IMG/VR virus record: IMGVR_UViG_3300034022_000539
Source of the DNA: a virus
Taxonomy: Duplodnaviria > Heunggongvirae > Uroviricota > Caudoviricetes
Length of the DNA stretch: 64,000 nt
Reading direction: 5' to 3' (one strand)
Shown here piece by piece: positions 3,648-32,644 of this stretch. The position numbers and the translations under genes are program-made. The notes beneath the pieces are model-generated. The model searched no databases and was not told where the DNA came from. It worked only from the letters and a program-made list of their open reading frames with translations. The number at the start of each line of letters is the position of its first letter. Positions within the stretch are counted from its first letter, which is position 1.

Positions 3648-4025
3648 ATGCCTTATATTTCAAAAGAACAAGTTAAAGTAAAACGAGAAGCCCTTAAGAA
3701 AGCCTTACCTCAGTTTAAGATGTCTATTACTACTGATAACTATAGTGGTATTAAAGTGGCTATCATGAAAGGTCCAGTTGATTTCGGTATTGAGTATGCT
3801 CAGTTAAATGAGTATGCTGATTATCGCGAACCACGTTGGGACAGAGACACTGAACAATATGTGTCCAATCCAGCTATAGCTGACCTAATGGAGACTGTGA
3901 TGCCTATCTTAAATGATGGTATGCGTGAAGGTCATGATGATAGTGATTATGGTCATATACCTGATTACTATACTTGGGTTCATATTGGTCAATGGGATAA
4001 AGCCTACGAGGTGGTTAATGCGTAA
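3648..4025 (+). CDS. hypothetical early protein (125 aa; MPYISKEQVKVKREALKK...)
   Basis: The start was moved from 3612, in the promoter, to the first ATG after the cassette. Confidence 0.6.
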   Translation: MPYISKEQVKVKREALKKALPQFKMSITTDNYSGIKVAIMKGPVDFGIEYAQLNEYADYREPRWDRDTEQYVSNPAIADLMETVMPILNDGMREGHDDSDYGHIPDYYTWVHIGQWDKAYEVVNA

Positions 4026-4359
4026 ACTTAAAAAGTCTGATGTTAATGCTGATACACTGATGAGGTGGTCTAATCGTAAGTTAGGTCCCTCTAGGTGCAA
4101 ACGTATATTGATTGTAGATCGTAAAAGCCCTGATTACGGTTGGTATGATTGGCATGGTACAGTCTACATCAATATACGCAATATTAGTTCTATGACTTCA
4201 GTATACAGAACTATGGCGCACGAATGGACTCATGCTCAACAAACATATGGTCGGTATAATGCCTATCATAAGAAGCATGGCTATAAAAACAATCCATATG
4301 AGGTTGCTGCCCGCCGGAGAGAAAGAACTTGCTTTAGTGAATTGTTCGTAACTTTATAG
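4018..4359 (+). CDS. putative small HExxH zinc-metallopeptidase-like protein (113 aa; ...TMAHEWTHAQQ...)
   Basis: The ATG overlaps the stop of the previous gene (ATGCGTAA). It carries an HEWTH motif. The ORF-track version starting at 3913 is an N-terminal hydrophobic frame-extension. Confidence 0.45.
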   Translation: MRKLKKSDVNADTLMRWSNRKLGPSRCKRILIVDRKSPDYGWYDWHGTVYINIRNISSMTSVYRTMAHEWTHAQQTYGRYNAYHKKHGYKNNPYEVAARRRERTCFSELFVTL

Positions 4360-4434: not shown

Positions 4435-4737
4435 ATGTCAAAAGAAACAATTTTAGTCCACACTCAATTTTACGAAAACTACAACGTCGGTCCTGATGGA
4501 TTCGGTGAAACTCCATCTTGGAAAGCCAAAGGTGGTCATACCTTCTCAATTGAGATGGATGCTGATCTTTTAATGTACTCTGACTCTAAGGCTATTTTTA
4601 GCAAAATGTTAGAGATGCATAACACTATTGCAGAGCGTTTTGAATATATAGAGTATGAAATTCAATGGTCTAAACCAAGTCTTCTTGGGTATCAGGCTGA
4701 TTATATAGCAGCTAACGAGGCTTTACAAACAGCCTAA
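4435..4737 (+). CDS. hypothetical early protein (100 aa; MSKETILVHTQFYENYNVG...)
   Basis: The ORF follows the cassette. The start was moved from 4399. Confidence 0.65.
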   Translation: MSKETILVHTQFYENYNVGPDGFGETPSWKAKGGHTFSIEMDADLLMYSDSKAIFSKMLEMHNTIAERFEYIEYEIQWSKPSLLGYQADYIAANEALQTA

Positions 4738-4790
4738 TCTTTTTTTGAAACAATTCATAATTTAACCATATAAAAATAAAAACAAATCTT

Positions 4791-5942
4791 ATGTCAGCAA
4801 TCGCAACATTATCATCAGCAGTTCTTGAAAATCGTAGAGCTGAAACACGTAACTCTCAGTCAATTCGTAAAACTGTATCAGTACGTGATATTAACCTTGT
4901 TAACGATACAACTATCGAGTATCAAGGTAAACGTCTAGAGATTACATCAGACGCATTCAAGTCTCTTATGAAATTGATCGGTATGTCAGCAACCTTTGCT
5001 GCTAAGTTCGAATCTCTATTTAACCCTGAGACCAAAGCAAAATTCGTTAACCAAATGAAAAACGCTATGGCAGCTCAGTTGAATGAGATCACCATTATAT
5101 TGTCTCCACAGACTAAGAAGGTAGTTGGTTTCTCTAAGAATGCAACAGACCTTATTTCTCACGAACGTTTCATTTCATTGGCTGATCAAATTATCGATCA
5201 ACATGGCTTTGAAGTTACCAATTGGGGTGTAGATGCTACTAAAGGTTCAGTTATTATCAATGCTTTTAATCCTAAGGCACAATTTGACCTTGCAGGTCTT
5301 GGTTTAGCCAATGAGGTTTTCACCGCTGGTGTTACTCTTAAGAATTCACCTTTCGGAGGTATACAAGTTATGCCTTATGTTAACAGAATGTTCTGTACGA
5401 ATGGCTTAACTACAGGATTGGCTAGCGAATCTTATTCACTATCTAATTTAAATCCTGAATCGATGGAGAACTTTCACCAACATATGAGTCAATTGCGTAA
5501 GAATGGATTTGTACCTACTAATTTTGCTGAAACTGTGAAATTGGCTACTCAAACTCCAGCTTCTCTATGGGAAATGGAACGTGCATATAGTTCAATCAAA
5601 CCAATGGTTGGCGCACAAGCTGACTCTTGGATCCCTTTGAATGATAACTACTCAGCGTATACTAAAGCAGGTATGATGCCAGAAGGTTTCTCAGCTGCTC
5701 AAAAGAAAAACGCACGTACTGATCAATCAATCTGGTCATTGGTAAATGGTATGACTCACGTCGCTACACATGCACCAGAACAATTAGCATTTAACATGAC
5801 TGATAGAGAATCTACAGACTTGATGGTTAAAGCTGGTGGTATCTTCGGTAAGCAATTTGATTTAGGTAACACAATTCGTTCACCTTTCAAAGCAGATGCT
5901 CACTTAGAGGCTGAAATGCAAGTAGGAGCTTTATTAAACTAA
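4791..5942 (+). CDS. hypothetical protein (383 aa; MSAIATLSSAVLENRRAETR...)
   Basis: A long ORF, unusual in AT-rich DNA. Its own AT-rich promoter-like tract is at 4745-4790 and a strong terminator lies downstream. Confidence 0.7.
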   Translation: MSAIATLSSAVLENRRAETRNSQSIRKTVSVRDINLVNDTTIEYQGKRLEITSDAFKSLMKLIGMSATFAAKFESLFNPETKAKFVNQMKNAMAAQLNEITIILSPQTKKVVGFSKNATDLISHERFISLADQIIDQHGFEVTNWGVDATKGSVIINAFNPKAQFDLAGLGLANEVFTAGVTLKNSPFGGIQVMPYVNRMFCTNGLTTGLASESYSLSNLNPESMENFHQHMSQLRKNGFVPTNFAETVKLATQTPASLWEMERAYSSIKPMVGAQADSWIPLNDNYSAYTKAGMMPEGFSAAQKKNARTDQSIWSLVNGMTHVATHAPEQLAFNMTDRESTDLMVKAGGIFGKQFDLGNTIRSPFKADAHLEAEMQVGALLN

Positions 5943-8375: not shown

Positions 8376-9065
8376 TTATACGCTATAACCTTCACCTTTT
8401 AAATAGTCTGTAACATCGTTAAGTGCATCTTCAAATCCTTTAGAAGATTCAACACCAGCATTAGGTCCCCATTCTTGATCCATCCAATCTTCTAATGAAG
8501 ACCACATACTATCTTTCCAGTCTTTGTTTTTTGGAAATTCATCCATAAATTCATCTCCAATATTATAAGAGTCAATATCAGACCATTTTTTCTTTTCGTT
8601 TAATGTTTTAGAAAATTGTTCGAATAGTTTAATGTGTTTCATTCCGTGTTTGGTACTCGATGTGTTTGATTCATTAATATCGTATCCATCCCAGTCCCAT
8701 TTGTAACCTTTACCATCAGCAGCTGTACCTTGATAACCATACATTCCTTTTGTAAATCCATCAAAGAATATAGCAACTCCATTGTCTTCAAGCTCTTGAG
8801 CTTTTTCTCTTGCAGCATCTTCATCGATGGCTTCAACTGTAACATCACCATTGTATACTATGTATAAGATTCCTTTATCAAATGTTAATTCAGCTCCATG
8901 GAACCATTCTTCACCATCATTTTCTTCGTCATTCATTGGTTCTTCACCCATTTCGAAGTTAGGTATTTGTGAGAGTCCAAATTTTAGAGCCTCTTTTTCT
9001 GTTTTATAGAAATTTACTTGAGAATAATCAGGTGCATTTTCTGCTACGTAATATACTTTTGCCAT
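8376..9065 (-). CDS. leader-family protein, apparent fusion: a 141-aa leaderless N-part plus a C-part that begins with an internal MKHIKLFEQF leader (Met142, ATG at 8642)
   Basis: The conserved leader sits in the middle of a continuous ORF. This could be a lost stop codon or an internal start. Confidence 0.5.
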   Translation of the reverse strand: MAKVYYVAENAPDYSQVNFYKTEKEALKFGLSQIPNFEMGEEPMNDEENDGEEWFHGAELTFDKGILYIVYNGDVTVEAIDEDAAREKAQELEDNGVAIFFDGFTKGMYGYQGTAADGKGYKWDWDGYDINESNTSSTKHGMKHIKLFEQFSKTLNEKKKWSDIDSYNIGDEFMDEFPKNKDWKDSMWSSLEDWMDQEWGPNAGVESSKGFEDALNDVTDYLKGEGYSV

Positions 9066-9082
9066 TTTATTTTTATTTTATT

Positions 9083-9769
9083 TTATTTATCTAACATTGC
9101 ATTCTGCAATTCTTTAAGTTTTGCTTCAGCTTCTTTTTGTCCTTTTTCTGTTTTTTTATAGACCTCTTTTTTTTCTTTAACATTATCACAACCAATCTTA
9201 TAATCACTACAAGAATATTGTGCTCCTGTTAAAGAATGTGCTGCTTCACTAAATGCTGCCCCAGCATTTTTGTACTCAGTAATGTAATATGAAAGCCAAG
9301 CTTTAGTTTCTGCAGAAAAATCTTTGCTTATTTTTTGCATTTTATCTTCAAGTTTTTTTGCATTAACTTCATTTTCATCTTCGATAGCTTTGTCTCTTTT
9401 AGCAAGACCGTCCATCATTCTTTCTTCTTCAGCTGGACAATTGTTTTTCATATAAGACCATCTAAAAGATTGTCTACTATTTATGAGCGTGTTATATTTG
9501 TTTATAAATTTAGCAAGTTGACCATATTCCTCTTTGGCATCAGCTCCACCTTGTAGTTCTGCTAATTCACCTTCCATTTCAACTTTCTGTGCATCCAAGT
9601 CTGATAATTGAAGCTCAGCTTCATCTTCATCCATGTCTCCTTTTTCTACAGCAGACTGAATTTCTTCCATTCTATCATCAAGTTCAGTTAGATCATTTTG
9701 AAGATCTTTGATTTTTTTGTCATTACTAGCCTCACCAATAAATTGTTCAAATAGTTTAATATGTTTCAT
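9083..9769 (-). CDS. leader-family protein (228 aa; MKHIKLFEQFIGEAS...), acidic coiled-coil-rich
   Basis: N-terminal leader present. Codon use is synonymous relative to paralogs, so conservation is at the protein level. Confidence 0.65.
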   Translation of the reverse strand: MKHIKLFEQFIGEASNDKKIKDLQNDLTELDDRMEEIQSAVEKGDMDEDEAELQLSDLDAQKVEMEGELAELQGGADAKEEYGQLAKFINKYNTLINSRQSFRWSYMKNNCPAEEERMMDGLAKRDKAIEDENEVNAKKLEDKMQKISKDFSAETKAWLSYYITEYKNAGAAFSEAAHSLTGAQYSCSDYKIGCDNVKEKKEVYKKTEKGQKEAEAKLKELQNAMLDK

Positions 9770-9804
9770 GTTTGTATTTTGTTTTTATTTTTGTTTTTAT
9801 TTAA

Positions 9805-10548
9805 TTAGTCCCAAACTTCAGTGTATGTACCACCTACTAACATTACTCCTTGTTGCCAATCAAAATCTAAACGATCCTTTTTGAACATGTAATGTAATTT
9901 AATAATAGATTCAGTTTCTTCTTCTGATAAACCTAATGCAATATTAAGATCTTTTATTTTGTATGCTTTATCGTAAGATTTTGTGATGTGTACTGATGCT
10001 TGACTTCCGTAACCTTGATCTCTTGATCCAATTTGTTTATACTCTGCTTTATCTGCTTTCCAAAATGCAAGTATACGTTGGATCATATCGCTGGTTAGAG
10101 CTTCTTTTTGTGTAGATTTAATCCAATTTTTAATATCTTTAGCGAAATTAACTTTCTTTGGATTTGATACATCAATTGCTGTGTAATAATTTATGTAATC
10201 TTGTCCAGATACACCTATACTAGCTCTACCTGGTTTTGGTTGTGCTTTACTAATAACTTCAAAATACGTATAAGAAGCTTTAATATACATTGGACTTATA
10301 TTACAGTCTTGTAATATCTTTGCTCGTTTTTTGTCAATCCATGACCAATCAGGAGCCTCATATGAATTAGTTATTTGCACATATCCATTACTGTAGTCAT
10401 ATGTTTTAGAATCTTTACCACCTCTTTGGTAACCTACATCTGAAAGGTTTGATAATAAAGCTTTTTCGAAATCTTGTACTAATGCAACTTCTTCAGGATT
10501 TACTTCACCTTCATTAATGAATTGTTCAAATAATTTAATCTTCTTCAT
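9805..10548 (-). CDS. leader-family protein (247 aa; MKKIKLFEQFINEGE...)
   Basis: N-terminal leader. Confidence 0.65.
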   Translation of the reverse strand: MKKIKLFEQFINEGEVNPEEVALVQDFEKALLSNLSDVGYQRGGKDSKTYDYSNGYVQITNSYEAPDWSWIDKKRAKILQDCNISPMYIKASYTYFEVISKAQPKPGRASIGVSGQDYINYYTAIDVSNPKKVNFAKDIKNWIKSTQKEALTSDMIQRILAFWKADKAEYKQIGSRDQGYGSQASVHITKSYDKAYKIKDLNIALGLSEEETESIIKLHYMFKKDRLDFDWQQGVMLVGGTYTEVWD

Positions 10549-10558
10549 ATCTGTTTTA

Positions 10559-11107
10559 TTATTTTGCGTCTATTGATAAGAATAGGCTTTGTCTAATCTC
10601 TATGTTGTTTTGACCAACACTCGACATATATTCTCCTGCTATGATAGTTTCAATTCCAGATACTAATGCGTCGTTTTGCATTCCACTTAGTTTTCTTACA
10701 TATTTACCAGCATCTACATCATCTGCAAATCCAACGTTAATTACAAAATCACTAGGAATTCTAACGAATAACTCTGTACCATCTGGTCTATTAAGACCAT
10801 TAATTTGATCATCTACCCATTCTTGTTTGCTTAATGCAGCCATAATATAAACAATAGCTTCTTTATCTTTGACTTGTTTCATAACTTCGTCAGCAATAAT
10901 CTCAGCTCCTTCTTTATCAGCCCATTTTGACCAAACTTGATTAATTTCTTTAAGAGTATCTTGAACGTCTCCTTCAAATTTTATTTTTTCAACCTCTTTT
11001 TTAAATGCAAATAACACTTTTCCAGCGATACCTTTAGCACCATACATACCTGTCATTTGATATGCTTTTTCATTTACGAATTGTTCGAATAATTTAATGT
11101 GTTTCAT
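10559..11107 (-). CDS. leader-family protein (182 aa; MKHIKLFEQFVNEKA...)
   Basis: N-terminal leader. Confidence 0.65.
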   Translation of the reverse strand: MKHIKLFEQFVNEKAYQMTGMYGAKGIAGKVLFAFKKEVEKIKFEGDVQDTLKEINQVWSKWADKEGAEIIADEVMKQVKDKEAIVYIMAALSKQEWVDDQINGLNRPDGTELFVRIPSDFVINVGFADDVDAGKYVRKLSGMQNDALVSGIETIIAGEYMSSVGQNNIEIRQSLFLSIDAK

Positions 11108-11110
11108 GTT

Positions 11111-11428
11111 CTATTTAGATATTTTATTCTTGCTTTCAAATTCAGTTACTTTAGCATATGCCGAAGACTTCATATCGCCTTTTGCTTTTTTAACAAGTTC
11201 TGCGAACTCTTTAGCTGTTTTCATGTCTGGAAATGGAAGTGAAGTTGTATAATCTGGTCCACTATATACATCAAATGGTGCATATTGATCATATTCTTGT
11301 TCTGTATAAACTCCAAATTGATCACTTTCTATATCAATGATGTTTTCTTTTTTAATAGGAAGGAATACTATCCATTCTTGAGATTTTCCTTCTTTTACGA
11401 ATTCTTCATATAATTTTGCGTACTTCAT
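11111..11428 (-). CDS. leader-family protein (105 aa; MKYAKLYEEFVKEGK...)
   Basis: N-terminal leader. Overlaps the next gene by 1 nt. Confidence 0.65.
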   Translation of the reverse strand: MKYAKLYEEFVKEGKSQEWIVFLPIKKENIIDIESDQFGVYTEQEYDQYAPFDVYSGPDYTTSLPFPDMKTAKEFAELVKKAKGDMKSSAYAKVTEFESKNKISK

Positions 11429-12021
11429 TATGTCATTTTTGGGTATTTTTTCTTAATTTCTTTATAGAATTTCTTGTAGTTTGTACCAGACATGTGATCT
11501 TCAGCTGCTCTAAGCAAATCTTCTAAAGAAGTCCACATTGTATTTGCTAATTGGTCTTGTGTTGTTGAAACTTGAGCCATTCTGTCTAGAATAGAATCAA
11601 TTATTTCAGGATTTAAAACAGTTTCAGTGCTAGGTTTTTCTGGACCCGCTGCTCTTTTAAGTGTCCACCAATCAACTTTCTTAGGAATAGTGTATGAAAC
11701 AATTCCTTTTTGTTGGTCATTTGGACTAATTTGTCCAGGTTTTCCAATATTACTAGTGATTTTATCTAAATCTAAATTATCATCAAAACCTTTTAATGCT
11801 TTCTGAATATCTTTAGTTAGATCCACATCTGCCATATTTGGCTCGGTTCTAAGATATATCATTGAAGTCGATGACATGTTAAATTCAACGCCTTTTACTT
11901 TAGAAAGCTCTTTCTTAAATTGTTTTTGATACTCATCAACATCTAACCCATTATTATATCCTGGGAAAATATCCATCTTAGCTTCATTAATAAATTCTTC
12001 GTATAGTTTTATGTACTTCAT
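11428..12021 (-). CDS. leader-family protein (197 aa; MKYIKLYEEFINEAK...)
   Basis: N-terminal leader. Confidence 0.65.
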   Translation of the reverse strand: MKYIKLYEEFINEAKMDIFPGYNNGLDVDEYQKQFKKELSKVKGVEFNMSSTSMIYLRTEPNMADVDLTKDIQKALKGFDDNLDLDKITSNIGKPGQISPNDQQKGIVSYTIPKKVDWWTLKRAAGPEKPSTETVLNPEIIDSILDRMAQVSTTQDQLANTMWTSLEDLLRAAEDHMSGTNYKKFYKEIKKKYPKMT

Positions 12022-12305
12022 TATTTCTTTTTTATGTTTTTACCATTTGGTGTTAATTCTCCGTTATCATCCATCACCGTAAAATGTTCTCTCGAATTTC
12101 CTTGTGTTAATTCTATAGATAAACCTTTGTTCATACCACCTGATTCAGTTGAAGACCACAATCTAACTACAGTCCAAATACCTTTTTCACCTTCAACTTT
12201 AACCTTATCCCATGTCTTAACTTCAGTTTGATCAGTAAATGATTTTATTAATTTATCTTCATTAGACTCGTTAATAAAATCTTCGTATAGTTTTGCATAT
12301 TTCAT
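12021..12305 (-). CDS. leader-family protein (94 aa; MKYAKLYEDFINESN...)
   Basis: N-terminal leader. Confidence 0.65.
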   Translation of the reverse strand: MKYAKLYEDFINESNEDKLIKSFTDQTEVKTWDKVKVEGEKGIWTVVRLWSSTESGGMNKGLSIELTQGNSREHFTVMDDNGELTPNGKNIKKK

Positions 12306-12326: not shown

Positions 12327-13208
12327 TTATATATCATAATCTTCTATTGTTTCAGGACGAGTCCATCTTCTAAGATCACCTATCCAATCTTCTAATCTAT
12401 AAGGGTGTTCCCAATATGGTGGTTTAGGTATGGTTAGTTTAGGTACTTTTAATCTATCACCATCTCTGGCTTCTAACCATTTGGTTTTCTTTTTAAGCTT
12501 TTTTACTATTTGTAGTAGAGTTACTTTGTCTTCAGAGTGCAGCGCCCATTCACCATTAATAGGTAAAAGATCATGACGAGTACATGCTAATGCAATTGAT
12601 TCTACTCTTGTAAAGATTCTTATTTGAGTTCCAGGTTCAACGATAGTTATTGCTTGTTGATTCTTGATTTGATTTTCCCATATACCTAAGACAGTTGCGT
12701 ATGCACCTTCTGTAATTTGTCCAGGTCCATATGCATTAAAGAAATAAAATATGTGTGATTTAAGATTGCTCCATTTTTGGTGCTTTTTAATAAGATCTAC
12801 ATTTTGTTTTTTGTACCAACTATATGGTGAAAGATCTTGATCTTTTTGTCCAAAATGTGATGAAGATGCTGAATAAATTAGGATTGCATTTTGATTTATA
12901 GCTAATCTTATAATTTGACTAGTTCCTTCAACACATGAAGATTGCACCTTTTCTATTTCTTGATATGATTGATGTATACGAGAATATTCTCCAAAGTGGT
13001 AGATTTTATCAATCTCAAATCTTTCTAGTAATCGAAGAGCATCTTGAGTTCTACCTTCTATATACTGTACACCTTGAATATGATTAGATTTTAGGCCAGT
13101 AGAATAATCATCTAGTGAAACTATTTTTGTATGCGGTTTCTCAGTAAGCAATGACTTAATAAGATGTGTTCCGATGAATCCTGCTCCTCCTGTTACTAAT
13201 GTATACAT
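12327..13208 (-). CDS. NAD(P)-dependent sugar epimerase/dehydratase (SDR, Rossmann TGGAGFIGTHL), 293 aa
   Basis: Has the N-terminal GxxGxxG Rossmann motif typical of UDP/GDP-sugar epimerases/dehydratases. It is first in an operon of glycan genes. Confidence 0.75.
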   Translation of the reverse strand: MYTLVTGGAGFIGTHLIKSLLTEKPHTKIVSLDDYSTGLKSNHIQGVQYIEGRTQDALRLLERFEIDKIYHFGEYSRIHQSYQEIEKVQSSCVEGTSQIIRLAINQNAILIYSASSSHFGQKDQDLSPYSWYKKQNVDLIKKHQKWSNLKSHIFYFFNAYGPGQITEGAYATVLGIWENQIKNQQAITIVEPGTQIRIFTRVESIALACTRHDLLPINGEWALHSEDKVTLLQIVKKLKKKTKWLEARDGDRLKVPKLTIPKPPYWEHPYRLEDWIGDLRRWTRPETIEDYDI

Positions 13209-13215
13209 ATTTTAA

Positions 13216-13992
13216 TTATTTAGTTCCTAGCCAACTGTAATATTCTCTCCATCCATGCTTGACTAATGTAAATTGTTTAGGATCTCTTAAATATGTTAGA
13301 TCAAAAATCTTTTCATCGCTTCCAATAAAATTCCTATCTAAGCAAAAACCTATTGTCTTATTTATCTCATTCATGTACCAATCTATTTTCCATGCTGGAC
13401 AAACGAATGCTCCACCTTGTATATGTCTTTGTTGTGAAAGAGTGTGCCATTCTGGATCTGGTATTGCAAAATCTAAATTGTGTGTAAAATGCATTATAGT
13501 ATCCATTGATAGTTTTTCTATATTAGGCCAAGTTTCTGGATAATCCATATCTTCTCTAATACCACCTGCATCTACCCATATTAAATGAGTTGCGTCTTTA
13601 TGTAATTTAAGTGCTTCATTTAAAAAGAAGATCTTATTGAACATTACTATATTATATAAAGGATAATTCATTTCAGGTACATGATCCCAATGTCTTTTCT
13701 TTAAAAATTCATCATCATGCATAACTTGATCTATTTTAGTGAACCAAGTCTTGTATGCTTCTAAATCTTCTATTGAGTTTATTACGTATGTGGTCATTTC
13801 TCCAGTTGGATCTACTTCAGATCTCATCTGTCTAATTCTTTCTTCGAACTTAGATTCTGTAAAAACCACCATATTAGCCCTAAGACTAAGTGCTCTTTGC
13901 ATCCAATGTAAATATGTGTGATATGATTGTGCGAAATCTTTCCATTCAGATCTACCAATATCATAAAGTGCCGTAATAACTAATGGTTTCAT
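13216..13992 (-). CDS. hypothetical protein in glycan cluster (258 aa)
   Basis: A long ORF tightly packed in the operon. No motif was recognised. Confidence 0.55.
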   Translation of the reverse strand: MKPLVITALYDIGRSEWKDFAQSYHTYLHWMQRALSLRANMVVFTESKFEERIRQMRSEVDPTGEMTTYVINSIEDLEAYKTWFTKIDQVMHDDEFLKKRHWDHVPEMNYPLYNIVMFNKIFFLNEALKLHKDATHLIWVDAGGIREDMDYPETWPNIEKLSMDTIMHFTHNLDFAIPDPEWHTLSQQRHIQGGAFVCPAWKIDWYMNEINKTIGFCLDRNFIGSDEKIFDLTYLRDPKQFTLVKHGWREYYSWLGTK

Positions 13993-14005
13993 TGCTAAAT
14001 TTTAT

Positions 14006-14740
14006 TTATATCCAAGACCACTCTACTCTAATGCCCTTATGTTTAATATGTATCTTATCTACATCAAAATGATTTGATCTACTTTGATTATTAAAAATAG
14101 TGTCAAGTGTAAATCCGTCTTTATTTAATATAGTTGGCACAAATCCTTCAGAATATCCATGTACACCATTTAGTAATAAATCTGTTATGTGACGTAGACT
14201 TTTATTTGAGAATCTAACAATTGGAAAGAATGATCCAAATAATTCACCATTTTTATTGATTTGGTCACCATCACCTGGAAATCTATCAAACCATAATGTA
14301 TTACTGTATGTGTTAGCATCAATTTCGGGAATGTTAGGTTGACTAGTCACTCCTTTGTTCTTAAATATGTAATAAGAAATAAAATCAGTATTGTTATTTT
14401 CAAATGCTTTAAAGAATTCTGACCAATTATCACATACTAAGTCATCATCCATAAACCAATACCAATCTTCATTGGGATTAAGCATATAATAATATGCCAT
14501 TCTAAGATGTGCATAGAACCAAATAATATTTCTATTACCTTGTTGATTCCACCAATGTAATTTACTAACATCACTTCTAAAATTAAAAAGATCTCTTACT
14601 TTTTGTTCATCATATTCTATTCCAATAGGTGCTCTATCAGATAAAAATTCAAAGTCAAAATCTACAGTTTTCCAATACGATTCATATGATTTAAATGTAT
14701 TAGCACATGTACATACTATTGTTTTAGACATATTGTTCAA
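14006..14740 (-). CDS. hypothetical protein in glycan cluster (244 aa), possible glycosyltransferase
   Basis: Operon context only. Confidence 0.5.
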   Translation of the reverse strand: MNNMSKTIVCTCANTFKSYESYWKTVDFDFEFLSDRAPIGIEYDEQKVRDLFNFRSDVSKLHWWNQQGNRNIIWFYAHLRMAYYYMLNPNEDWYWFMDDDLVCDNWSEFFKAFENNNTDFISYYIFKNKGVTSQPNIPEIDANTYSNTLWFDRFPGDGDQINKNGELFGSFFPIVRFSNKSLRHITDLLLNGVHGYSEGFVPTILNKDGFTLDTIFNNQSRSNHFDVDKIHIKHKGIRVEWSWI

Positions 14741-15545
14741 TTATTTTTTCATTCCATTCAGGAATTCTATTATATTGATGTGCAATTTTGTACACTATGT
14801 TGTTTGAGTCAATCAAAACATTTTCTTGTAATTTAGGTAAACCATATTTTTTATCAATAGCTTTTCCTAAACCCCATTCTATATGTTGAAACGTAGGACC
14901 TGATAATGAACAGTGAACTACCCAACCTTCATTAGGTTTAAAGATTTTACAATTATCAATTAAGTTCTTATAAATTAAAATATTAAATGCAGCTTGATCC
15001 CTTATATCATGGCCTTTTAATGAACCATCTACTAAGTGTTGTTGCATTCTTAATGTTTTTACTAATGAATCTTTTTTACCACACATTACTCCACTACAAA
15101 CCACCTCATATTGTCTAATAAAATCTACATATTCTGGAAATGCTTTATTCATAACATCCATATTCCAAGGCTCTTCATTATGTAATACACCTTCTGATCC
15201 AGCAAAGAAATCATATTTGTCTAGTTCTAACATTTCAAATGGATCTGCTTGAAAGCAAACGTCAAATACATCGGTTACCATAAATAAATCATAAGGACTA
15301 TTCTCTATCCAATTTGCAGTATGAATTAATCTACTATCATTAATTGTTAATCCTGGATCTGATTCAATAGCATGGAATTTAATTCCATTTAGATTTAAAA
15401 CATTTCTATCTTGAGCATTCATATCAGCTCCAATAAGTACTACTTCACCGTCTTTTACATGTTTTTTAAAACTATTAGCCCAAACCCTAATTTTATCGAT
15501 ATTATTGGTTACATTGTTGCTAACTCCTGTTAATACTTTTTTCAT
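14724..15545 (-). CDS. hypothetical protein in glycan cluster (273 aa), possible GT-A glycosyltransferase (DVFD)
   Basis: Operon context. Has a DxD-like motif MVTDVFD. Confidence 0.5.
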   Translation of the reverse strand: MKKVLTGVSNNVTNNIDKIRVWANSFKKHVKDGEVVLIGADMNAQDRNVLNLNGIKFHAIESDPGLTINDSRLIHTANWIENSPYDLFMVTDVFDVCFQADPFEMLELDKYDFFAGSEGVLHNEEPWNMDVMNKAFPEYVDFIRQYEVVCSGVMCGKKDSLVKTLRMQQHLVDGSLKGHDIRDQAAFNILIYKNLIDNCKIFKPNEGWVVHCSLSGPTFQHIEWGLGKAIDKKYGLPKLQENVLIDSNNIVYKIAHQYNRIPEWNEKIIEQYV

Positions 15546-15546
15546 T

Positions 15547-16179
15547 TTAACAATTATGTAATTTATGTGTCAACATTTCATTTACACCAAATATTGTAGG
15601 CCAACTATACTCTAGTGCCCATATTTGTGGATCGTTTCCATGTGCTCCTCCAGAAAATGAAGAAGTTGATATATTTTTTGCTATACTTTCCATTAGTTTT
15701 ACGTAAAAATCTAATGATCTTTTCTTAATTTGATCTTTCTTTACAATACATTGCATACCACCTATAAACATAAATGGCAATTTATATTCAATTTCCATTT
15801 TTTCACAGTAATCAATAGCTTGCTTAATACAACCATCATTATCTCTGATATAAGTTGGTCCAATTGGATAAAATGGTTTTGTAAAATCACAATCATTGAT
15901 AAATTCTACACAAGTTTCACAATCATGTTCGAATGGATTTCCTTGTAAGAATATTGTGTAATCAGCTAAATTGTACCAATTTGTTACAATATGATGTAGG
16001 TGTGTATGCGCATCTTTACCATAATTTAACAGATTTCTTTCAAATAAATGATTATCTGCTGCATTTTTATTGTAAATAGTTACTTTATACTTAAGTTTTT
16101 TTGTCCAAGATACATCTTCATTGTATTTAGCAACAACTGCTTCTATTGTCATAAAACTCTTTCTATTTTTGTACACCAA
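15547..16179 (-). CDS. hypothetical protein in glycan cluster (210 aa)
   Basis: Operon context. Confidence 0.5.
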   Translation of the reverse strand: MVYKNRKSFMTIEAVVAKYNEDVSWTKKLKYKVTIYNKNAADNHLFERNLLNYGKDAHTHLHHIVTNWYNLADYTIFLQGNPFEHDCETCVEFINDCDFTKPFYPIGPTYIRDNDGCIKQAIDYCEKMEIEYKLPFMFIGGMQCIVKKDQIKKRSLDFYVKLMESIAKNISTSSFSGGAHGNDPQIWALEYSWPTIFGVNEMLTHKLHNC

Positions 16180-17396
16180 CCTTTTGATGCGCTATGTGGC
16201 CAAACAATCCACTTATATGGTTTTGGTCCTTGCAAGTCTACATGAATGTGTATCCAATCACCAGGTTGTTGTAATTTCTGAGAAATCTCATGGTCGTTTA
16301 AATCCTTTCTATAAACTGAAGTACCATCTTCTGATTCCATAATCACTGCACAAAAAGTGTAGTCTGTTTCAGTAAGCACAGATCTATGCACATCTATAAT
16401 GTGTTTGAATATATGATGAAAACTATTATCATAATCTTCTACATGAGGATTAGGTGCAAGTTTATTAGATGTGGTCCATTGTTGTACTGCACGATCTCTA
16501 AGTCTAATACCTGCGTATCTTTCCCAATCTGCAATAGTTCTAACTCTACCTAATCCATATTTACCATAAATATCTTCTTCTGAATCAAATGACTCTCCAT
16601 CAATTCCTAATAGTTTACGAGTTTTTTCATGAGTTCTTGTGTTTCTCTTACCCCATTCTGAATCATCATCCCATTGTTTAGTTCTACCTTTACGAGTATA
16701 TTCATGCCACGCAATAATTTTATGTGGATGGAATAAATCATATCCGTGTGTAAATGCTCTAACTGCAATAGTAATCTCTTCACCATGAAAATAGAATTCT
16801 GGATCATGTTGTACCTCTATTGCAAATTGACCTACTGTAAATGCGAAGTGTGCTGAATAAAATCTTGAAGGAATTGGTTCTGTCATATTTTCCCATCCTG
16901 GAATTGTAGCAGGTAAAAAGAATATTACACCTTCTGGAGTAAATCTATCAAAATTCATTAACCATGGTGCTTGAGTTCTGCCCTTTGGATCGATTTCTGG
17001 ATTATATGATGAAATATAGCTTGTAAGTAATGGTTTAGCATGACCTTTAGCTTGTAAACCCCTTAGCATATTAATCAATTCAGTGTCCCAGTTTCTAATA
17101 AACCTATGATGACTATCTAATTGAAATGTATAAGTTTCACCTTGATAAAGTTGTTGAATGCTATTTCGTGCCCAACATGCTCCAGTTGAATCTTTATAAT
17201 TTACATCTAAAATTCTAAATCGCGAATCGTTTTTATATTGATCTAATGTATCCCATGTATCTTCTTCGGAATGTTGCCAACATATACCAAATCTAAGACG
17301 ATCTGGAAATTCAGCGTTTAGTAAACAATCCTTAAGAGTATTCAATAACTCTGGATCTCTGTAACTTGCAATTTGAATAAATATGGTTTCTTCCAT
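16149..17396 (-). CDS. putative glycosyltransferase (415 aa; QIASYRDPELLNTL...FGICWQHSEED...)
   Basis: The N-terminal region is a GT-like fold. It is the first gene after the promoter at 17408-17432. Confidence 0.5.
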   Translation of the reverse strand: MEETIFIQIASYRDPELLNTLKDCLLNAEFPDRLRFGICWQHSEEDTWDTLDQYKNDSRFRILDVNYKDSTGACWARNSIQQLYQGETYTFQLDSHHRFIRNWDTELINMLRGLQAKGHAKPLLTSYISSYNPEIDPKGRTQAPWLMNFDRFTPEGVIFFLPATIPGWENMTEPIPSRFYSAHFAFTVGQFAIEVQHDPEFYFHGEEITIAVRAFTHGYDLFHPHKIIAWHEYTRKGRTKQWDDDSEWGKRNTRTHEKTRKLLGIDGESFDSEEDIYGKYGLGRVRTIADWERYAGIRLRDRAVQQWTTSNKLAPNPHVEDYDNSFHHIFKHIIDVHRSVLTETDYTFCAVIMESEDGTSVYRKDLNDHEISQKLQQPGDWIHIHVDLQGPKPYKWIVWPHSASKGWCTKIERVL

Positions 17397-17499: not shown

Positions 17500-20220
17500 T
17501 TATGGTGCTATAGGATCTTCTTTTCTATTGTGTGTAATTATACCATTTGCTACGTATACATCATTAGACTCTACGTCTAATTTATAAACTTTAAATGATC
17601 CACTATTTTTTACAATAGAAGTAATTAGATGTTCATATCCATCTTGATTAATAAATGAATCGCCAACTAAAATATCATTAGCTTTCATTACAGACCATAC
17701 TGAATTTCTTTTTATAATATGCACGTGATCTTCACTTGAAGTTAATAAACCATCATTAAAACTTAACACGCTATTTACAATGTGTTCAGTATTTTGAGTA
17801 ACTGTAGCCGATGTATTAGATAAAGTTGGATTTGTTTGAGACCATTGTATTAAATTCTGATAATTATCTCCATCTGGCATATTACCTATTATCATTGAAG
17901 ATAATTCCATACCAATTGTTAACGATTCTATTGTAGCGTGAGTACCGTTTGATAATTTAACTAAAGTTCCTTCTAGTAAACATCCTCCTGGAGTTCCGGC
18001 ACATAATTCAAATATAGTATACTCAGGTGGTGTTGTATCAGGCTGAACTAATCTCCAACACGTTCCAGATGCATCGTCTACATATACTAATTGATCAAGA
18101 TTATATAAATCACTATATGGTCCCACATACGAATATACACCTCCATCATTTCTTTCTGCTAACCATGATCTATATACAGTTGGAGTAGGTTTATCTGGTG
18201 TTGCTGTAGGATTTGGAATATATTCGCTGTAACTACATCCAAATTCACTTGTACATCCAATAGTTTGGTCAATTACGAAAATATCATCTGAAATTATAAA
18301 TACCATTTCTGATGAGTCCCATGTACTTGGCACTGAACTACTACATACTGAATATACTGCTCCAGATCTTCCATTATAATAATAAGGTGAAGCTAGCATT
18401 TCATTAAATGTTCTTTGTATATAACTTCCAAAATTATAACCTAATCCATATCTAAATATGTCCACTGTATCAGCTACCCATACATGATAACATGTACCCG
18501 AAGGTGCATCAGTTGGTCTCGGAGTTGATGTCGGAGGAACTAAGGTCGGTTCTGGTATATATGTAGTTGGTGTTGGTGGAATCGGTGTTGCTGTTGGATA
18601 ACCTGCACCTGCACCCGAAGATGAATAACATTGAGATCCAATTTGTGTTATAATAATATTTTGATAATATGCAATTGCTTTTACACATAAAACAACAGGT
18701 TGAGAATATGGTGTTAAATACACTGTATCACTTCTACCATCACACATTGTATATTGTATGTAACCACTATTCCAACTATCTGTTAATTGAAAATTATAAG
18801 TATAACAAGGTACAGCTGTTGCTGTTGGTGGAATTGGCGTTGCCGTTGGTAGGTTTAACGAACTGTCAAGTATTCTTACATTAACTGTATCTAATACAAT
18901 ACTACTAGCATTAGTAAGTTTTACAATCAACCATTCATCACCTTCTGTTAAATTATCAGATTTTGTGGTTAATTCAAATACACCTTGACCATTTACACCC
19001 GAAGTAGTAGTAATTACTACATAACCATTGTTGATAGCTTCAACCAAATCACTTGCATTTGCATTATATGGTCCTAATTCCCACCAAAGTGTTGTTGGTG
19101 ATGCATTTAAATATTGTGTGTCAACTACAAATGTAATTTTTACATTTTCTTCATTGACTTGTGTTTTATTAGCAGAAATACTATAAGTAGGTGGAAACCA
19201 ATACTCATCAGTTACATAACCAAGTACACTATCGTAGTATACAGCATATGCTGATCCTGCTTCATAATACCATCCACTGGGCGCTGTTTCACACGTAGCT
19301 ATATAACTATTGTCACATAAAGTTTGTATGCCAGAGATTAAGCCTGTGTTGATCCAGTTACCGTTACTATCAAATGTAACTTGATCGTATCTTCCAACTG
19401 GAGTAGTTGCAGTAGATAAGCCATAATAATAATTACCAGGATATGTTGATGCTAATGAACTTTGTACCATTAATTGTGCATCGTATGAATTACAAATACC
19501 TAATAAATTATATTCAAAATAAGTTTGATCTGTTGAATTATTAACATCGTCATTTCCACCTGGAACATCATCAGTTATTAAAATAATAAGTTTAATTGCA
19601 TCAGATCTAAATGATCCTGCAATATTATTAGACAATATTTCATTGATCCCTAAACCACCGGGTTCTGGCGCACCTTGACCATATCCTAAAGGAAAACTAG
19701 GTGTAGCTAATAAATTAAGTTTTGTTTGAAAATCAGTAATTGAACCAACATTACCTAATGGTTGCATACATGTAATAAATTGAGTTCTATTATTAAATGT
19801 GTTTATCACAGCTTTTTGTGATGCTGGTAAATTTAAGTATATAGATGTCTGTCCATAGTTGTTTGACGGTGGAGATGTTAGATTACCGGCATATTCATCA
19901 AATATGCAAAGTCCTACTCTATAATTACCTAATGATTCACTATCGATAGTACTTAAAATATTAGCAATACCAGCTTTAACACCATTGATTGCACCGTCCA
20001 TAGATCCAGTATAGTCAACTAAAAATACTATATCTAACCCTGTAGTACATTGAGTTGGAATAGTTAATTTATTTTGGTTTATAGCTAGACCATTTGTAGA
20101 ATAAGTCTTAAAAACATTTGAATTGTTAATATTATTAGGACTTAATGGATCATAAGCTAAACTTACAAAACTAGTCGGTGGTACACAAGATTGCCCATAT
20201 GAGCTTACAGATAATGCCAT
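17500..20220 (-). CDS. large structural/surface protein: N-terminal vWA domain (DIVFLVDYTGSM, MIDAS-like), PT-rich linkers (PTATPIPPTATAVP), C-terminal Hint/BIL-type autoprocessing domain; 906 aa
   Basis: vWA motif at aa ~60-230. The Hint domain has blocks CLLEGTLVKL (Cys747), TSSEDHVH and VYKLDVESNDVYVANGIITHN, followed by an RKEDPIAP tail. Confidence 0.8.
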   Translation of the reverse strand: MALSVSSYGQSCVPPTSFVSLAYDPLSPNNINNSNVFKTYSTNGLAINQNKLTIPTQCTTGLDIVFLVDYTGSMDGAINGVKAGIANILSTIDSESLGNYRVGLCIFDEYAGNLTSPPSNNYGQTSIYLNLPASQKAVINTFNNRTQFITCMQPLGNVGSITDFQTKLNLLATPSFPLGYGQGAPEPGGLGINEILSNNIAGSFRSDAIKLIILITDDVPGGNDDVNNSTDQTYFEYNLLGICNSYDAQLMVQSSLASTYPGNYYYGLSTATTPVGRYDQVTFDSNGNWINTGLISGIQTLCDNSYIATCETAPSGWYYEAGSAYAVYYDSVLGYVTDEYWFPPTYSISANKTQVNEENVKITFVVDTQYLNASPTTLWWELGPYNANASDLVEAINNGYVVITTTSGVNGQGVFELTTKSDNLTEGDEWLIVKLTNASSIVLDTVNVRILDSSLNLPTATPIPPTATAVPCYTYNFQLTDSWNSGYIQYTMCDGRSDTVYLTPYSQPVVLCVKAIAYYQNIIITQIGSQCYSSSGAGAGYPTATPIPPTPTTYIPEPTLVPPTSTPRPTDAPSGTCYHVWVADTVDIFRYGLGYNFGSYIQRTFNEMLASPYYYNGRSGAVYSVCSSSVPSTWDSSEMVFIISDDIFVIDQTIGCTSEFGCSYSEYIPNPTATPDKPTPTVYRSWLAERNDGGVYSYVGPYSDLYNLDQLVYVDDASGTCWRLVQPDTTPPEYTIFELCAGTPGGCLLEGTLVKLSNGTHATIESLTIGMELSSMIIGNMPDGDNYQNLIQWSQTNPTLSNTSATVTQNTEHIVNSVLSFNDGLLTSSEDHVHIIKRNSVWSVMKANDILVGDSFINQDGYEHLITSIVKNSGSFKVYKLDVESNDVYVANGIITHNRKEDPIAP
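17527..17982 (-). other. Hint (Hedgehog/intein-like, BIL-type) domain at the C-terminus of the 906-aa protein
   Basis: Intein blocks A (C-L-L-E-G-T-x-V), B (T-x-x-H) and F/G (VANGIITHN) are all present. HN is followed by Arg, not Cys/Ser/Thr, and there is no C-extein. This points to autoprocessing rather than splicing. Confidence 0.7.
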
Positions 20221-24138: not shown

Positions 24139-25491
24139 TTATACTACGTTTAGTGTTAATGCACCAGATAGAGGTTGGTCAAATACTTCATATAAAGTGT
24201 ATGCATTTCCTAAATGTGTGAAATCTAATTTAGATACAAATGTAAATGGAATTCCATTCGCAGCATCTGCGAATTTAGCTGTCGTTACATAGTCAGTTGT
24301 ACTAACTGATTTTGGAATTGCAATGTAATATCTTTGTGAAGAAGCCACATTAGCCGCAAAATACAATGTACCGTTAGGTATTTCAGTATTATTTATAGCA
24401 CTAAATGTATCAAAATAAATTTGTTCTACATTATTAGCAGTTCCTTCATTCGCTAACATATCGACAAATACTAAATCAAAATTAGTTGTAGTTGTATTAT
24501 CGTTTAAGTAATAATCAGAAGAAGGTGTAGTTAATGAATTAACTCCTGGATAACCTCCATTTCCGTTCCAGTGGAACCAGAATGTAGATGATCCTTCAGG
24601 AACTGGCGTTGCAGTCGGTTCTGGAATTGAAGTTGCAGTCGGTGCAGGAACTGGCGTTGCAGTCGGTTCTGGAATTGAAGTTGCAGTCGGTGCAGGAACT
24701 GGCGTTGCAGTCGGTTCTGGAATTGAAGTTGCAGTCGGTGCAGGAACTGGCGTTGCAGTCGGTGCAGGAATAGCTGTCGCTGTAGGTGCAGGAACTGGCG
24801 TTGCAGTCGGATCTGGAATTGCTGTCGCTGTAGGCGCAGGAACTTCAGTCGCTGTAGGATCTGGAACTGGCGTTGCAGTTGGGATCACTTCAGTCGCTGT
24901 AGGATCTGGAACTGGCGTTGCAGTCGGGATCACTTCAGTTGCTGTAGGTACAGGAACTTCAGTCGCTGTAGGATCTGGAACTGGCGTTGCAGTCGGGATC
25001 ACTTCAGTTGCTGTAGGATCTGGAACTGGCGTTGCAGTTGGATCTGGTATAGCTGTTGCTGTAGGTGCAGGAACTGGCGTTGCAGTCGGGATCACTTCAG
25101 TTGCTGTAGGATCTGGAACTGGTGTTGCAGTCGGAATAATCGCAGTCGCAGTTGGCAAAATTGTTGCCGTAGGAACAGGAACTGGTGTTGCAGTAGGTGG
25201 TATAGGTGTAATATCAGTAACAAATAAAGTATTTGAAACGGTTTCACATAAATTAGAGTCAATTATTTTAACTTTATATTGACCCGGTGCTAAACCACTA
25301 TTACCCGTATTATCGGTTGCATTACCAAATGTAAACGTATTGGATACAATGTTATTGACAGGATTTTGAAATGTCGGATATGCATTGTTAGGTATCGGTT
25401 GATTTGTACCTGCGTTCAGTAAAGTATATTGGTAAGGTCCGACTCCTCCAACTACTTGTACTGTAACTGTTCCATTATTAATGTTTGCCAT
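24139..25491 (-). CDS. Pro/Thr-repeat protein (450 aa): N-terminal ~95-aa domain, ~20 copies of PTATPVP(D/A)PTATE(V/A)I, C-terminal ~140-aa domain
   Basis: Tandem repeats of 21-42 nt are visible at 24564-25209. Flanking globular parts are conserved. Confidence 0.75.
   Translation of the reverse strand: MANINNGTVTVQVVGGVGPYQYTLLNAGTNQPIPNNAYPTFQNPVNNIVSNTFTFGNATDNTGNSGLAPGQYKVKIIDSNLCETVSNTLFVTDITPIPPTATPVPVPTATILPTATAIIPTATPVPDPTATEVIPTATPVPAPTATAIPDPTATPVPDPTATEVIPTATPVPDPTATEVPVPTATEVIPTATPVPDPTATEVIPTATPVPDPTATEVPAPTATAIPDPTATPVPAPTATAIPAPTATPVPAPTATSIPEPTATPVPAPTATSIPEPTATPVPAPTATSIPEPTATPVPEGSSTFWFHWNGNGGYPGVNSLTTPSSDYYLNDNTTTTNFDLVFVDMLANEGTANNVEQIYFDTFSAINNTEIPNGTLYFAANVASSQRYYIAIPKSVSTTDYVTTAKFADAANGIPFTFVSKLDFTHLGNAYTLYEVFDQPLSGALTLNVV
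24564..25209 (-). repeat. tandem coding repeats (PTATPVPDPTATEVI units)
   Basis: Near-identical 42-nt units (GGAACTGGCGTTGCAGTCGG...) are repeated. Confidence 0.75.
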
Positions 25492-28187: not shown

Positions 28188-28916
28188 TTATTGTTTTTTT
28201 GCTGCTAGTTGTTCTTGAATCCAACGTTTACCTAATGGATTTTGAACTGGTGTACCCAAGTTTCTGTTAATTTGCTTTTCGGCTTGATCTAATAGATCTT
28301 CACCATATGCTGAATTATCAACAATTAACATTTTATCAGATCCAAATAGTTTTTGAAAGTGACCTAAGTTATTTTGAACTTCTTTCCACATTTTTTCAAC
28401 CATTTTATCTTCTAACTTTCTTTCTCTCATTTGATTTCGCTCTAATGCAACTTCTAATGATGTATTAACGAAAACCATATATGTATCATAACCTAAGTTT
28501 TGATAAATATCTCTAGTTTTACTAATCTTATCAAAATCTTTACCAGTTCCATCAATTACTTGACCTAATCTAGAATTTAAATAGTTATTTTGAAGTCCTC
28601 TGGTCAAGTTTTTAGCTTTATCTCTAATAACCATAACTTCAGCCCATTTTTCAGGATCTTTTGCTAAATCTGCAAGATCTCCTGCATTATATCCAGCATC
28701 TTTTAAGCCTTTTTCGAATGCATTATCGTTATTAACTAATTTAAGTCCAGTTGCATAAGACACTGAACCTACTTTTCCTTTTGGAAAATCAAAAAGTTCT
28801 GTTGCAACATAAGATTTACCACTTCCTGGTCCACCTGCCATAAAGAATGCCTTAAGGATTCCTGGATCATATACGCCCTCGCTTACAAATTCTTCAAATA
28901 ATTTGATATATTTCAT
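28188..28916 (-). CDS. leader-family P-loop nucleotide kinase-like protein (242 aa; MKYIKLFEEFVSEG...MAGGPGSGKSYVA)
   Basis: N-terminal leader plus a Walker A motif GGPGSGKS 25 aa in. This is the adenylate/dNMP-kinase-like arrangement. Confidence 0.7.
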   Translation of the reverse strand: MKYIKLFEEFVSEGVYDPGILKAFFMAGGPGSGKSYVATELFDFPKGKVGSVSYATGLKLVNNDNAFEKGLKDAGYNAGDLADLAKDPEKWAEVMVIRDKAKNLTRGLQNNYLNSRLGQVIDGTGKDFDKISKTRDIYQNLGYDTYMVFVNTSLEVALERNQMRERKLEDKMVEKMWKEVQNNLGHFQKLFGSDKMLIVDNSAYGEDLLDQAEKQINRNLGTPVQNPLGKRWIQEQLAAKKQ

Positions 28917-28956
28917 GATTATAAATTTATTTATATACTATATATCAAAATAAAAA

Positions 28957-28982
28957 AGGAGGTAACTTTAAAAGTACCTCCT
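28957..28982. terminator. bidirectional terminator AGGAGGTA-actttaaaag-TACCTCCT flanked by A6 and T-runs
   Basis: A perfect 8-bp stem. The minus-strand sense is followed by TTTTTTATTTT. Confidence 0.7.
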
Positions 28983-29007
28983 TTGAAATATTATTTAATA
29001 TATCTAA

Positions 29008-29385
29008 CTATTTTGCTATAAAAGCCGAAGTTGTTTTTTCACCATTTCTTAAAAGATTAGCAACTCTAGAATATCCATCTAATAAAACACCATCAACGAC
29101 AACTATTTCTAATGAAAGATCTCTTGGACTTACATCGTCATCAGTGTAACGTTCTTCTCCTGAATCATAATATTCTTTAAAATCAGGATCGGTTTTTAAT
29201 AAAGACTTCATATCAAAATCATCTACGTTTGCAAATGTTCTACCAACAATATCTTTTTTAAATCCATTTGGAATATTTTCTTTTTCAGGTGTAATATCTT
29301 TAATATGTCTCCATACTTCTGATCCCTTTAAATCATTATATTCATTTAAATTGTTGTAGTCTTCATATGTTTTAACGTGTCTCAT
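29008..29385 (-). CDS. leader-related protein (125 aa; MRHVKTYEDYNNLNEY...), divergent leader
   Basis: The N-terminus keeps M-[KR]-H-[VI]-K-x-[FY]-E-[DE]-[FY]. Confidence 0.55.
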   Translation of the reverse strand: MRHVKTYEDYNNLNEYNDLKGSEVWRHIKDITPEKENIPNGFKKDIVGRTFANVDDFDMKSLLKTDPDFKEYYDSGEERYTDDDVSPRDLSLEIVVVDGVLLDGYSRVANLLRNGEKTTSAFIAK

Positions 29386-32631: not shown

Positions 32632-32644
32632 AAACGTTTATTAG

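Follow-up and report, generated by a model that had tools for sequence, protein, structure and literature searches.

The 64-kb window analysed here, meaning the whole 64,000-nt stretch of IMG/VR virus record IMGVR_UViG_3300034022_000539, contains 18 minus-strand open reading frames (ORFs) that share the start MK[HYK][IV]K[LT][FY]E[EQ]F[IVL]NE, a 13-residue sequence referred to below as the leader. Twelve of the leaders are strict and six are degenerate (e.g. MRHVKTYEDYNNLNE and MKYAKPFEAFANK). Seven back-to-back reading frames carry it at 8376-12305 (ATGs at 8642, 9769, 10548, 11107, 11428, 12021 and 12305), where the leaders fit MK[HYK][IA]KL[FY]E[EQD]F[IV].E and one of the seven is an internal restart; the remaining 11 leader ORFs are located at 28188-35371 and 43103-44773 (Table 1). 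An earlier account of this DNA, the sequence-only reading, had described seven consecutive minus-strand leader genes at 8376-12305 and at least 18 members in the window. ORF and six-frame analysis found the same seven, and 18 were counted over the three clusters. The gene sizes given in that account, 88 to 247 aa, require one correction, since the “88-aa” ORF starts inside a 229-aa ORF at 8376-9065.

The core of the leader, K[LIM][FY]E[EQD][FY], occurs 12 times in the six-frame translation of the window, against 0.04-0.05 occurrences in shuffles. All 12 occurrences lie on the minus strand directly after a methionine, 11 at ORF starts and one inside the 229-aa ORF. The longer 229-aa protein is probably real, because portal-adjacent 265-aa ORFs of the leader loci L198, L201, L202 and L208 match it at 37% identity (E 7e-28) and have the same two modules around an internal leader. 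Beyond the leader, the proteins have unrelated bodies, as had been claimed, and an all-vs-all BLASTP of the leader-protein bodies gave no significant similarity (best E 0.03).

Over the 39 nt of the leader, the DNA of the 12 strict copies shows 76% identity, and 35% of the same-amino-acid codon pairs in these copies use different codons. Identity is 40% over the 39 nt upstream and 32% over codons 14-26, and exact shared DNA runs between leader pairs have a median of 9 nt, with some of up to 23 nt. Because the flanking DNA has diverged and 35% of same-residue codon pairs differ, selection acts on the peptide; the leader is thus conserved at the peptide level and not at the DNA level, in agreement with the sequence-only reading. 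The leader codons lean to C-ending synonyms, with CAC used in 9/10, TTC in 13/27, TAC in 8/14 and CTA in 8/20 cases, compared with genome-wide shares of 26%, 28%, 23% and 11%, respectively. This bias could result from selection on early translation or from common ancestry of the leaders.

Exact look-ups place the window at approximately 175.8-239.8 kb of the 260,917-bp metagenomic contig ena:ERZ27272104:k141_203066. Since a contig of this length carries phage-type genes (a collagen-like tail fibre, lysins, a ClpB-like AAA+ protein and others), its source is a jumbo phage, marine and uncultured. When 18 kb of the window was compared with 50,697 phage records by megablast, no match was returned. 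A tblastn search with 16 concatenated leader proteins found the bodies absent from cultured phages bar a weak match in Melnitz, with weak matches also in uncultured huge phages, and the leader strings had no match in a full-text literature search. A degenerate leader DNA pattern occurs in at least 120 IMG/VR loci versus one match in 596 Gb of prokaryotic genomes (185,579 species genomes); therefore the tag is virus-specific and not a motif common to prokaryotic genes. The sole prokaryotic match (L216, 3640-3678, plus strand, JACPMZ010000011.1) falls in a 36-aa ORF (MKIVKLFEEFINEG...) on a 40-kb contig binned in a groundwater Woesearchaeota metagenome-assembled genome; this contig may be viral and mis-binned.

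The leader count in related phages, suggested by the earlier account as a check, was extended to the window together with 199 IMG/VR loci, which gave 330 unique leader proteins. These proteins have a median length of 137 aa and fall into 140 unrelated body clusters, 98 of them singletons. Within the leader, K2, K5, E8 and F10 are each conserved in more than 90% of the 330 proteins, positions 11-13 read [IVL]-[NSAGT]-E in at least 78%, and conservation ends after position 13. The final E13 is present in 78% of the 330 leaders, a share that rises to at least 90% when each of the 140 clusters is counted by one representative, and the P1' residue that follows is mostly A, S, K or G. The clade is abundant, marine and uncultured, and proteins of this kind are abundant in Tara-type marine samples. 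LR756500, Lak, PAU and PTm1 have capsid proteins related to that of the clade, and the Lak and PTm1 phages have been placed in jumbo group 2.2, a group with a gp23-type capsid protein (Iyer et al., PMC7824862). By capsid protein, the named relatives closest to the clade are PTm1 and LR756500, neither of which has a strong leader. The capsid-protein kin in Lak (Prevotella) and PTm1 (Tenacibaculum) phages, together with a SprB repeat in a 450-aa ORF of the window, suggests a host in the Bacteroidota.

The closest known counterpart of such a tag is the capsid-targeting sequence (CTS) of phage T4. The diverse defence proteins packaged as internal proteins (IPs) by T-even phages have the CTS as their sole common part (PMC3012670), and the propeptides of the IPs, Alt, gp23 and gp24 are cut off by the prohead protease gp21, which also breaks gp22, gp67 and gp68 into fragments (PMC5694885). 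IPII and IPIII of T4 both begin MKTYQEFIAE. Leader residues 5-13 of the 140 cluster representatives were turned into a scoring matrix, which was run on 425 Met starts in 51.5 kb of T4. The N-termini of IPII and IPIII came out on top with 16.8 bits (offset 1), and the 423 other Met starts reached at most 8.7 bits, which bears out the strong resemblance to MKTYQEFIAE noted earlier. In the alignment, KLFEQFINE of the leader is matched to KTYQEFIAE of T4, and leader variants ending in FIAE exist. The T4 late-promoter motif TATAAATA is not enriched (12 observed versus 13.5 expected).

The leader is also linked to head assembly through its neighbours. Phmmer queries with T4 gp20, gp21 and gp23 match the portal, protease and capsid protein, respectively, in leader loci, and a protease-domain profile matches 404 IMG/VR contigs, including three of 234-236 kb that share genes with the window. 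The gene order in approximately 75 of 80 loci is portal, leader-tagged gene, protease-scaffold gene and capsid protein gene, where the protease-scaffold protein (640-720 aa) consists of a gp21-like protease fused to a coiled-coil scaffold. In L077, for example, the protease domain lies at 3834-4340. At the position of the leader-tagged gene, T4 carries the genes of its core proteins gp67 and gp68. In L160 this slot holds a 72%-identical homolog of m06 and a homolog of the first module of m10; the m06 homolog is the second module of the portal-adjacent gene, with its leader internal, two genes upstream of the protease-scaffold gene. In L077-type loci the slot is taken by a homolog of the last m10 module, and in L201-type loci by a homolog of the 229-aa ORF.

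The F-[IV]-N-E ending of the leader recurs in the head proteins themselves. The capsid protein of the clade starts MANLINE[SA]E...PIIESATG, giving L-I-N-E/S at its N-terminus (a slash marks the putative cleavage junction here and below); the protease domain ends R-V-N-E/[SA], and the scaffold is rich in [LIV]-A-E, a variant of the leader ending. For comparison, T4 gp24 begins MAKINELLRE/S. Proteases of the gp21 family cut after Glu with a hydrophobic P3 residue (PMC5694885), and the motifs of the leader, capsid protein, protease end and scaffold all fit such cleavage.

Three multi-module proteins of the window carry leader-like motifs internally. The linkers of the 811-aa protein m10 are ETLNE, ESTLNE, ESIDE, ESTINE, ESLDE, GSIDE, ESIVNE and KYLNE, and its architecture appears polyprotein-like. 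The linker motif is enriched solely in m10 (4 observed versus 0.31 expected; 0/300 shuffles reach 4), in a 1192-aa ORF (7 versus 0.84; 0/300 shuffles reach 7) and in m11 (2 versus 0.08; 1/300 shuffles reaches 2). Modules of all three occur elsewhere as stand-alone leader proteins, with the linkers aligned to the second half of the leader; the internal LKESVVNE/KKDD of m11, for example, aligns with the N-terminal leaders of its stand-alone homologs. For m10, these stand-alone counterparts include portal-adjacent genes of L077 and L160, and modules of the 1192-aa ORF have homologs in 26 leader loci. The C-terminus of the 1192-aa ORF has three “EGNAFGAARAKAI..FEFxGxTYKVED” repeats that are also present inside the protease-scaffold proteins of some relatives. 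The arrangement corresponds to a predicted polyprotein layout, with independent modules, each found alone elsewhere, joined by putative protease-site linkers. Since only the second half of the leader (ESxVNE) is retained between modules, the simplest reading is a two-part tag, in which the whole leader would serve for targeting and be needed once per polypeptide and the second half would be a cut site that can be reused internally.

A further line of evidence comes from m08, which has more than 8000 homologs. Of the best 120, all but one have a leader whose final E is immediately followed by G[VI]YDPGI. Orthologs in T4-like pelagiphages have different leaders at the same junction, MKTFAELQE/GVYDP in Melnitz and MIPFILKE/GLYDP in HTVC008M. 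Because m08 orthologs carry different short leaders at one junction, the leader is a separable, lineage-specific add-on ending in a gp21-type site. A PDB profile search with m08 gave no match. The same two phages (Melnitz, L132; HTVC008M, L122) also have HAD-type nucleotidase genes with short N-terminal extensions ending in h-x-E, where h is hydrophobic (MKSIVEVTSINE/E and MKYSAFKAETLNLHLVQE/Q, respectively); enzymes with CTS-like tags may therefore be common among T4-like phages of the sea.

Most leader bodies have no known family. Matches in the window are a P-loop kinase (m08), a NUDIX hydrolase (m18) and a weak HAD match (m16), and the bodies across the clade include ATP-grasp, cytidylyltransferase, HD, RNA-ligase-like, DUF5661, DUF5824 and weak Acb1-like 2H phosphoesterase domains. 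A leader-tagged homolog of the anti-Thoeris protein Tad3 is found at 4618-5370 (plus strand) of L083, IMGVR_UViG_3300043392_000054 (Pfam E 9e-22). It has a second ...SINE/G site just before the domain and belongs to a 6.8-kb locus with at least eight leader genes. Tad3 inhibits the TIR protein ThsB (PMC13402655). The presence of such bodies is compatible with the tagged cargo being pre-packaged counter-defence effectors.

Table 1. Leader-tagged and multi-module reading frames of the 64-kb window
Feature	Positions	Strand	Length (aa)	Leader	Next residue(s)	Remarks
Two-module ORF	8376-9065	minus	229	MKHIKLFEQFSKT (internal, 8604-8642)		N-terminal module starts MAKVYYVAEN, then DINES, then the internal full leader
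m01	8376-8642	minus	88			Second module of the 229-aa ORF; ATG lies within the longer ORF
m02	9083-9769	minus	228	MKHIKLFEQFIGE (9731-9769)	A	Acidic body that looks rich in coiled coil; without known family
m03	9805-10548	minus	247	MKKIKLFEQFINE	G	Without known family
m04	10559-11107	minus	182	MKHIKLFEQFVNE	K	Homologs in 7 leader loci, at most 64% identity
m05	11111-11428	minus	105	MKYAKLYEEFVKE	G	
m06	11428-12021	minus	197	MKYIKLYEEFINE	A	72%-identical homolog in L160
m07	12021-12305	minus	94	MKYAKLYEDFINE	S	
m08	28188-28916	minus	242	MKYIKLFEEFVSE	GVYDPGIL	P-loop kinase (Zeta_toxin/AAA_33), PNK-like
m09	29008-29385	minus	125	MRHVKTYEDYNNLNE (degenerate)	Y	
m10	29406-31841	minus	811	MKKVKLFEEFISE		Several modules with leader-like linkers
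m11	32902-33867	minus	321	MKIVKLFDDYLN		Three modules
m12	33882-34220	minus	89-112 (range for m12-m15)			Small leader protein
m13	34422-34760	minus	89-112 (range for m12-m15)			Small leader protein
m14	34767-35096	minus	89-112 (range for m12-m15)			Small leader protein; homolog 81% identical in 234-kb contig 3300042563_003307 (L055)
m15	35102-35371	minus	89-112 (range for m12-m15)			Small leader protein
Multi-module ORF	36192-39770	minus	1192	No N-terminal leader		About 10 modules; at least 7 internal ES[VK]V[NT]E-type linkers
m16	43103-43702	minus	199	MKHVKNYTEYLNE	V	Weak HAD-phosphatase-like body with DLDDT
m17	43733-43996	minus	87	MKHLKTFQLFEDA (degenerate)		Coiled-coil-like body
m18	44285-44773	minus	162	MKHLKKYDQFINE	K	NUDIX hydrolase (E 1e-12)

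Taken together, the matrix result, the head module of the clade, the core-slot synteny, the linker motifs and the m08 junction make it likely that the leader is a cleavable prohead-targeting propeptide of the T4 CTS type, and they lend support to the capsid-targeting propeptide proposed by the sequence-only reading. From these features we infer scaffold binding, cleavage, packaging and ejection of the tagged proteins. The leader would form an amphipathic helix, with I4, F7, F10 and I11 likely making up its hydrophobic face, and this helix would dock the newly made protein onto the scaffold or core assembling on the portal. The second half of the leader, E-x-[FY]-[IVL]-[NSAG]-E, ends in [L/I/V]-x-E, the site at which gp21-family prohead proteases cut. 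After shell closure, the prohead protease would remove the tag after Glu13 and would also cut the internal ESxVNE linkers of the 811-aa, 321-aa and 1192-aa proteins, yielding many small mature head-internal proteins. By analogy with T4 IPI*, Alt and the ejection proteins of phiKZ and SPN3US, at least some of the cargo would enter the host with the DNA as ready-made effectors.

Several observations weigh against this interpretation. Nothing in T4 corresponds to the first five residues of the leader (MKHIK), whose role might be a different one. T4 IPII and IPIII are basic, DNA-binding proteins, whereas the leader bodies are mostly acidic (median pI 5.6, 63% below 6.5), and several of them look like ordinary cytoplasmic enzymes. 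At least 18 cargo species in 64 kb is far beyond the number in T4. An AlphaFold2 model of m08 has a mean pLDDT of 64.8, with the leader as a low-confidence helix. Protease, scaffold and capsid genes were not seen in the 81 of 261 kb read from the source contig, and we infer the head-module genes of this contig from related contigs. Finally, megablast and tblastn found no cultured relative with the tag.

Some of these points would also suit a tag that is not cleaved and through which the proteins dock to, or are recognised by, a partner different from the prohead, such as a degron or adaptor signal for a phage ClpB/ClpA-like AAA+ protein, or a tag for a cytoplasmic complex that times activity or turnover. 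A 671-aa ClpB-like AAA+ protein is encoded approximately 7 kb upstream of the window (L127), many bodies are enzymes expected to work in the cytoplasm, and leader residues 1-5 are left free of a T4 equivalent. Such a tag would, however, leave unexplained the h-I-N-E ending at the capsid N-terminus and at the protease/scaffold junction, the fixed leader-tagged gene between portal and protease, the linkers that keep only the second half of the leader, and the way the leader matrix singles out the T4 CTS; we therefore regard it as unlikely. Less probable still is that the conserved 5' end is a nucleic-acid device, either a recombination handle for cassette swapping or a translation-initiation enhancer, with the peptide as a by-product. 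Tandem gene arrays, modules shuffled between genomes with breakpoints at leaders and linkers, the C-ending codon bias and the exact runs of up to 23 nt in some pairs could all be read in this way. Yet the synonymous codon differences and the median exact run of 9 nt speak against it, the upstream DNA is not conserved, and the internal linkers are conserved as peptide. Moreover, most other phage genes, including the capsid gene of related phages, lack the tag, and the near-absence of the pattern from 596 Gb of prokaryotic genomes means that it is not a translation feature common with prokaryotic genes. On the codon and flank comparison of the strict leaders, a DNA element was rejected.

Tandem arrays are likewise typical of paralog expansion, and the leader could in principle be the conserved N-terminal domain of a single paralogous family whose remainder has diverged beyond recognition. 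A homologous family of this kind had been named in the sequence-only reading as one of the outcomes that would refute a packaging tag. It was looked for among the bodies, which fall into 140 clusters without cross-similarity and include the unrelated folds of P-loop kinases, NUDIX, HAD, ATP-grasp, cytidylyltransferase and Tad3 proteins, while conservation stops abruptly at residue 13. The distinct Pfam folds effectively refute a single family, to which we give almost no credence. A cleavable prohead-targeting propeptide is thus the reading preferred here.

Other features of the window and its contig lie apart from the leader genes. A 1.65-kb gene-free gap at a divergent strand switch (98-1752; GC 42% versus approximately 31% elsewhere) carries arrayed GGGAAGCTCCTGG / GGAAGCTTCCTGGG repeats, and within it a 34-nt inverted repeat lies at 1436-1570. 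The gap has no Rfam match and could be an origin or regulatory region. Gene clusters for NAD-dependent epimerases and glycosyltransferases, including a 1068-aa GT9+GT1 fusion, occur at 12327-17396 and 45739-49822 (minus strand), and two thymidylate-synthase homologs with CMP-sugar-type genes lie just upstream of the window (L127, 1-6105); together they are a hint of hypermodified DNA or of a glycosylated virion. The 1294-aa collagen-like tail fibre is adjoined by a 906-aa ORF with weak VWA and intein-splicing-domain matches (17500-20220, minus strand) and by the 450-aa ORF (24139-25491, minus strand), in which the SprB repeat is accompanied by a proline-rich cornifin-like stretch. A single tRNA-Ala (TGC) gene is found at 58143-58217 (minus strand).

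Phage proteins that are co-delivered with the genome are normally known only through virion proteomics of cultured phages. A near-invariant tag, tied to a T4-type prohead protease through gene order and shared motifs, would predict such cargo by sequence for an abundant uncultured clade. More tentatively, and at somewhat less than even confidence, the proteins marked by the tag may be the largest virion-packaged and host-injected repertoire so far seen in phages, with well over 100 families that include counter-defence and RNA/nucleotide-repair enzymes, and with polyproteins diced by the prohead protease into many separate effectors. If so, a 13-residue string would let the injected proteome of uncultured phages be read from metagenomes. 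Candidate ready-made enzymes in this repertoire are the Tad3-like Thoeris inhibitor and the NUDIX, PNK-like, RNA-ligase-like and Acb1-like proteins. Potential uses include capsid engineering beyond T4, for which the leader would supply a compact packaging tag together with a protease site, and a natural catalogue of candidate anti-defence effectors. The leader would also show how a single peptide can be divided between targeting, in one half, and a cleavage linker open to reuse, in the other.

The layout of m10 and the 1192-aa ORF can be compared with the polyvalent proteins of phages and conjugative elements, which are large, multi-module proteins thought to be co-delivered with DNA and to act in host-defence conflicts (Iyer et al. 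2017, cited in PMC7824862). Both window proteins show this beads-on-a-string layout. They differ from polyvalent proteins in that their modules are mostly of unknown fold and have between them a single recurring linker motif derived from the leader. Neither an embedded protease nor recognisable effector domains turned up in the window copies of m10 and the 1192-aa ORF.

A further parallel is offered by phiKZ, 201phi2-1 and SPN3US, giant phages with many head-internal proteins, in which the propeptides of head and ejection proteins are processed by gp175/gp245, a gp21-family protease that cuts after Glu, with several sites per substrate possible (PMC5694885). The paralogs gp53 and gp54 of those phages share an identical 15-residue N-terminus (PMC5694885). 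In contrast to the leader, their propeptides are mostly longer than 100 residues, have no single common tag and are cleaved at [A/S/G]-x-E (PMC5694885). These phages also form a separate lineage that is nucleus-forming and carries a virion RNA polymerase. Outside that lineage, the cargo-loading peptides of encapsulins and the scaffold-based targeting of P22 demonstrate that a short terminal peptide suffices to load unrelated cargo into an HK97-fold shell. Those peptides, however, are C-terminal and uncleaved, bind the shell or the C-terminal domain of the scaffold, and have no sequence similarity to the leader.

The T4 CTS, as found on IPI, IPII, IPIII and Alt, remains the nearest known system. 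Both the CTS and the leader are short N-terminal tags on unrelated, fast-evolving bodies and both end in [I/L]-x-E; moreover, the clade has T4-type portal, protease, scaffold and capsid genes with a tagged gene in the prohead-core slot. The differences are of several kinds. The leader is 13 residues long, with an extra MKHI(K) at its start and usually Asn instead of Ala at P2, and its protease is fused to the scaffold. The bodies here are mostly acidic and include enzymes, and the multi-module proteins reuse the cleavage half as linkers. The host of the leader phages is probably a member of the Bacteroidota, and none of these phages is in culture. Tagged genes number at least 18 in the 64-kb window, and the clade as a whole has at least 140 body families, whereas T-even phages have a handful. 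The leader system is best explained as a much larger-scale variant of the T4 CTS mechanism and not as a new kind of system.

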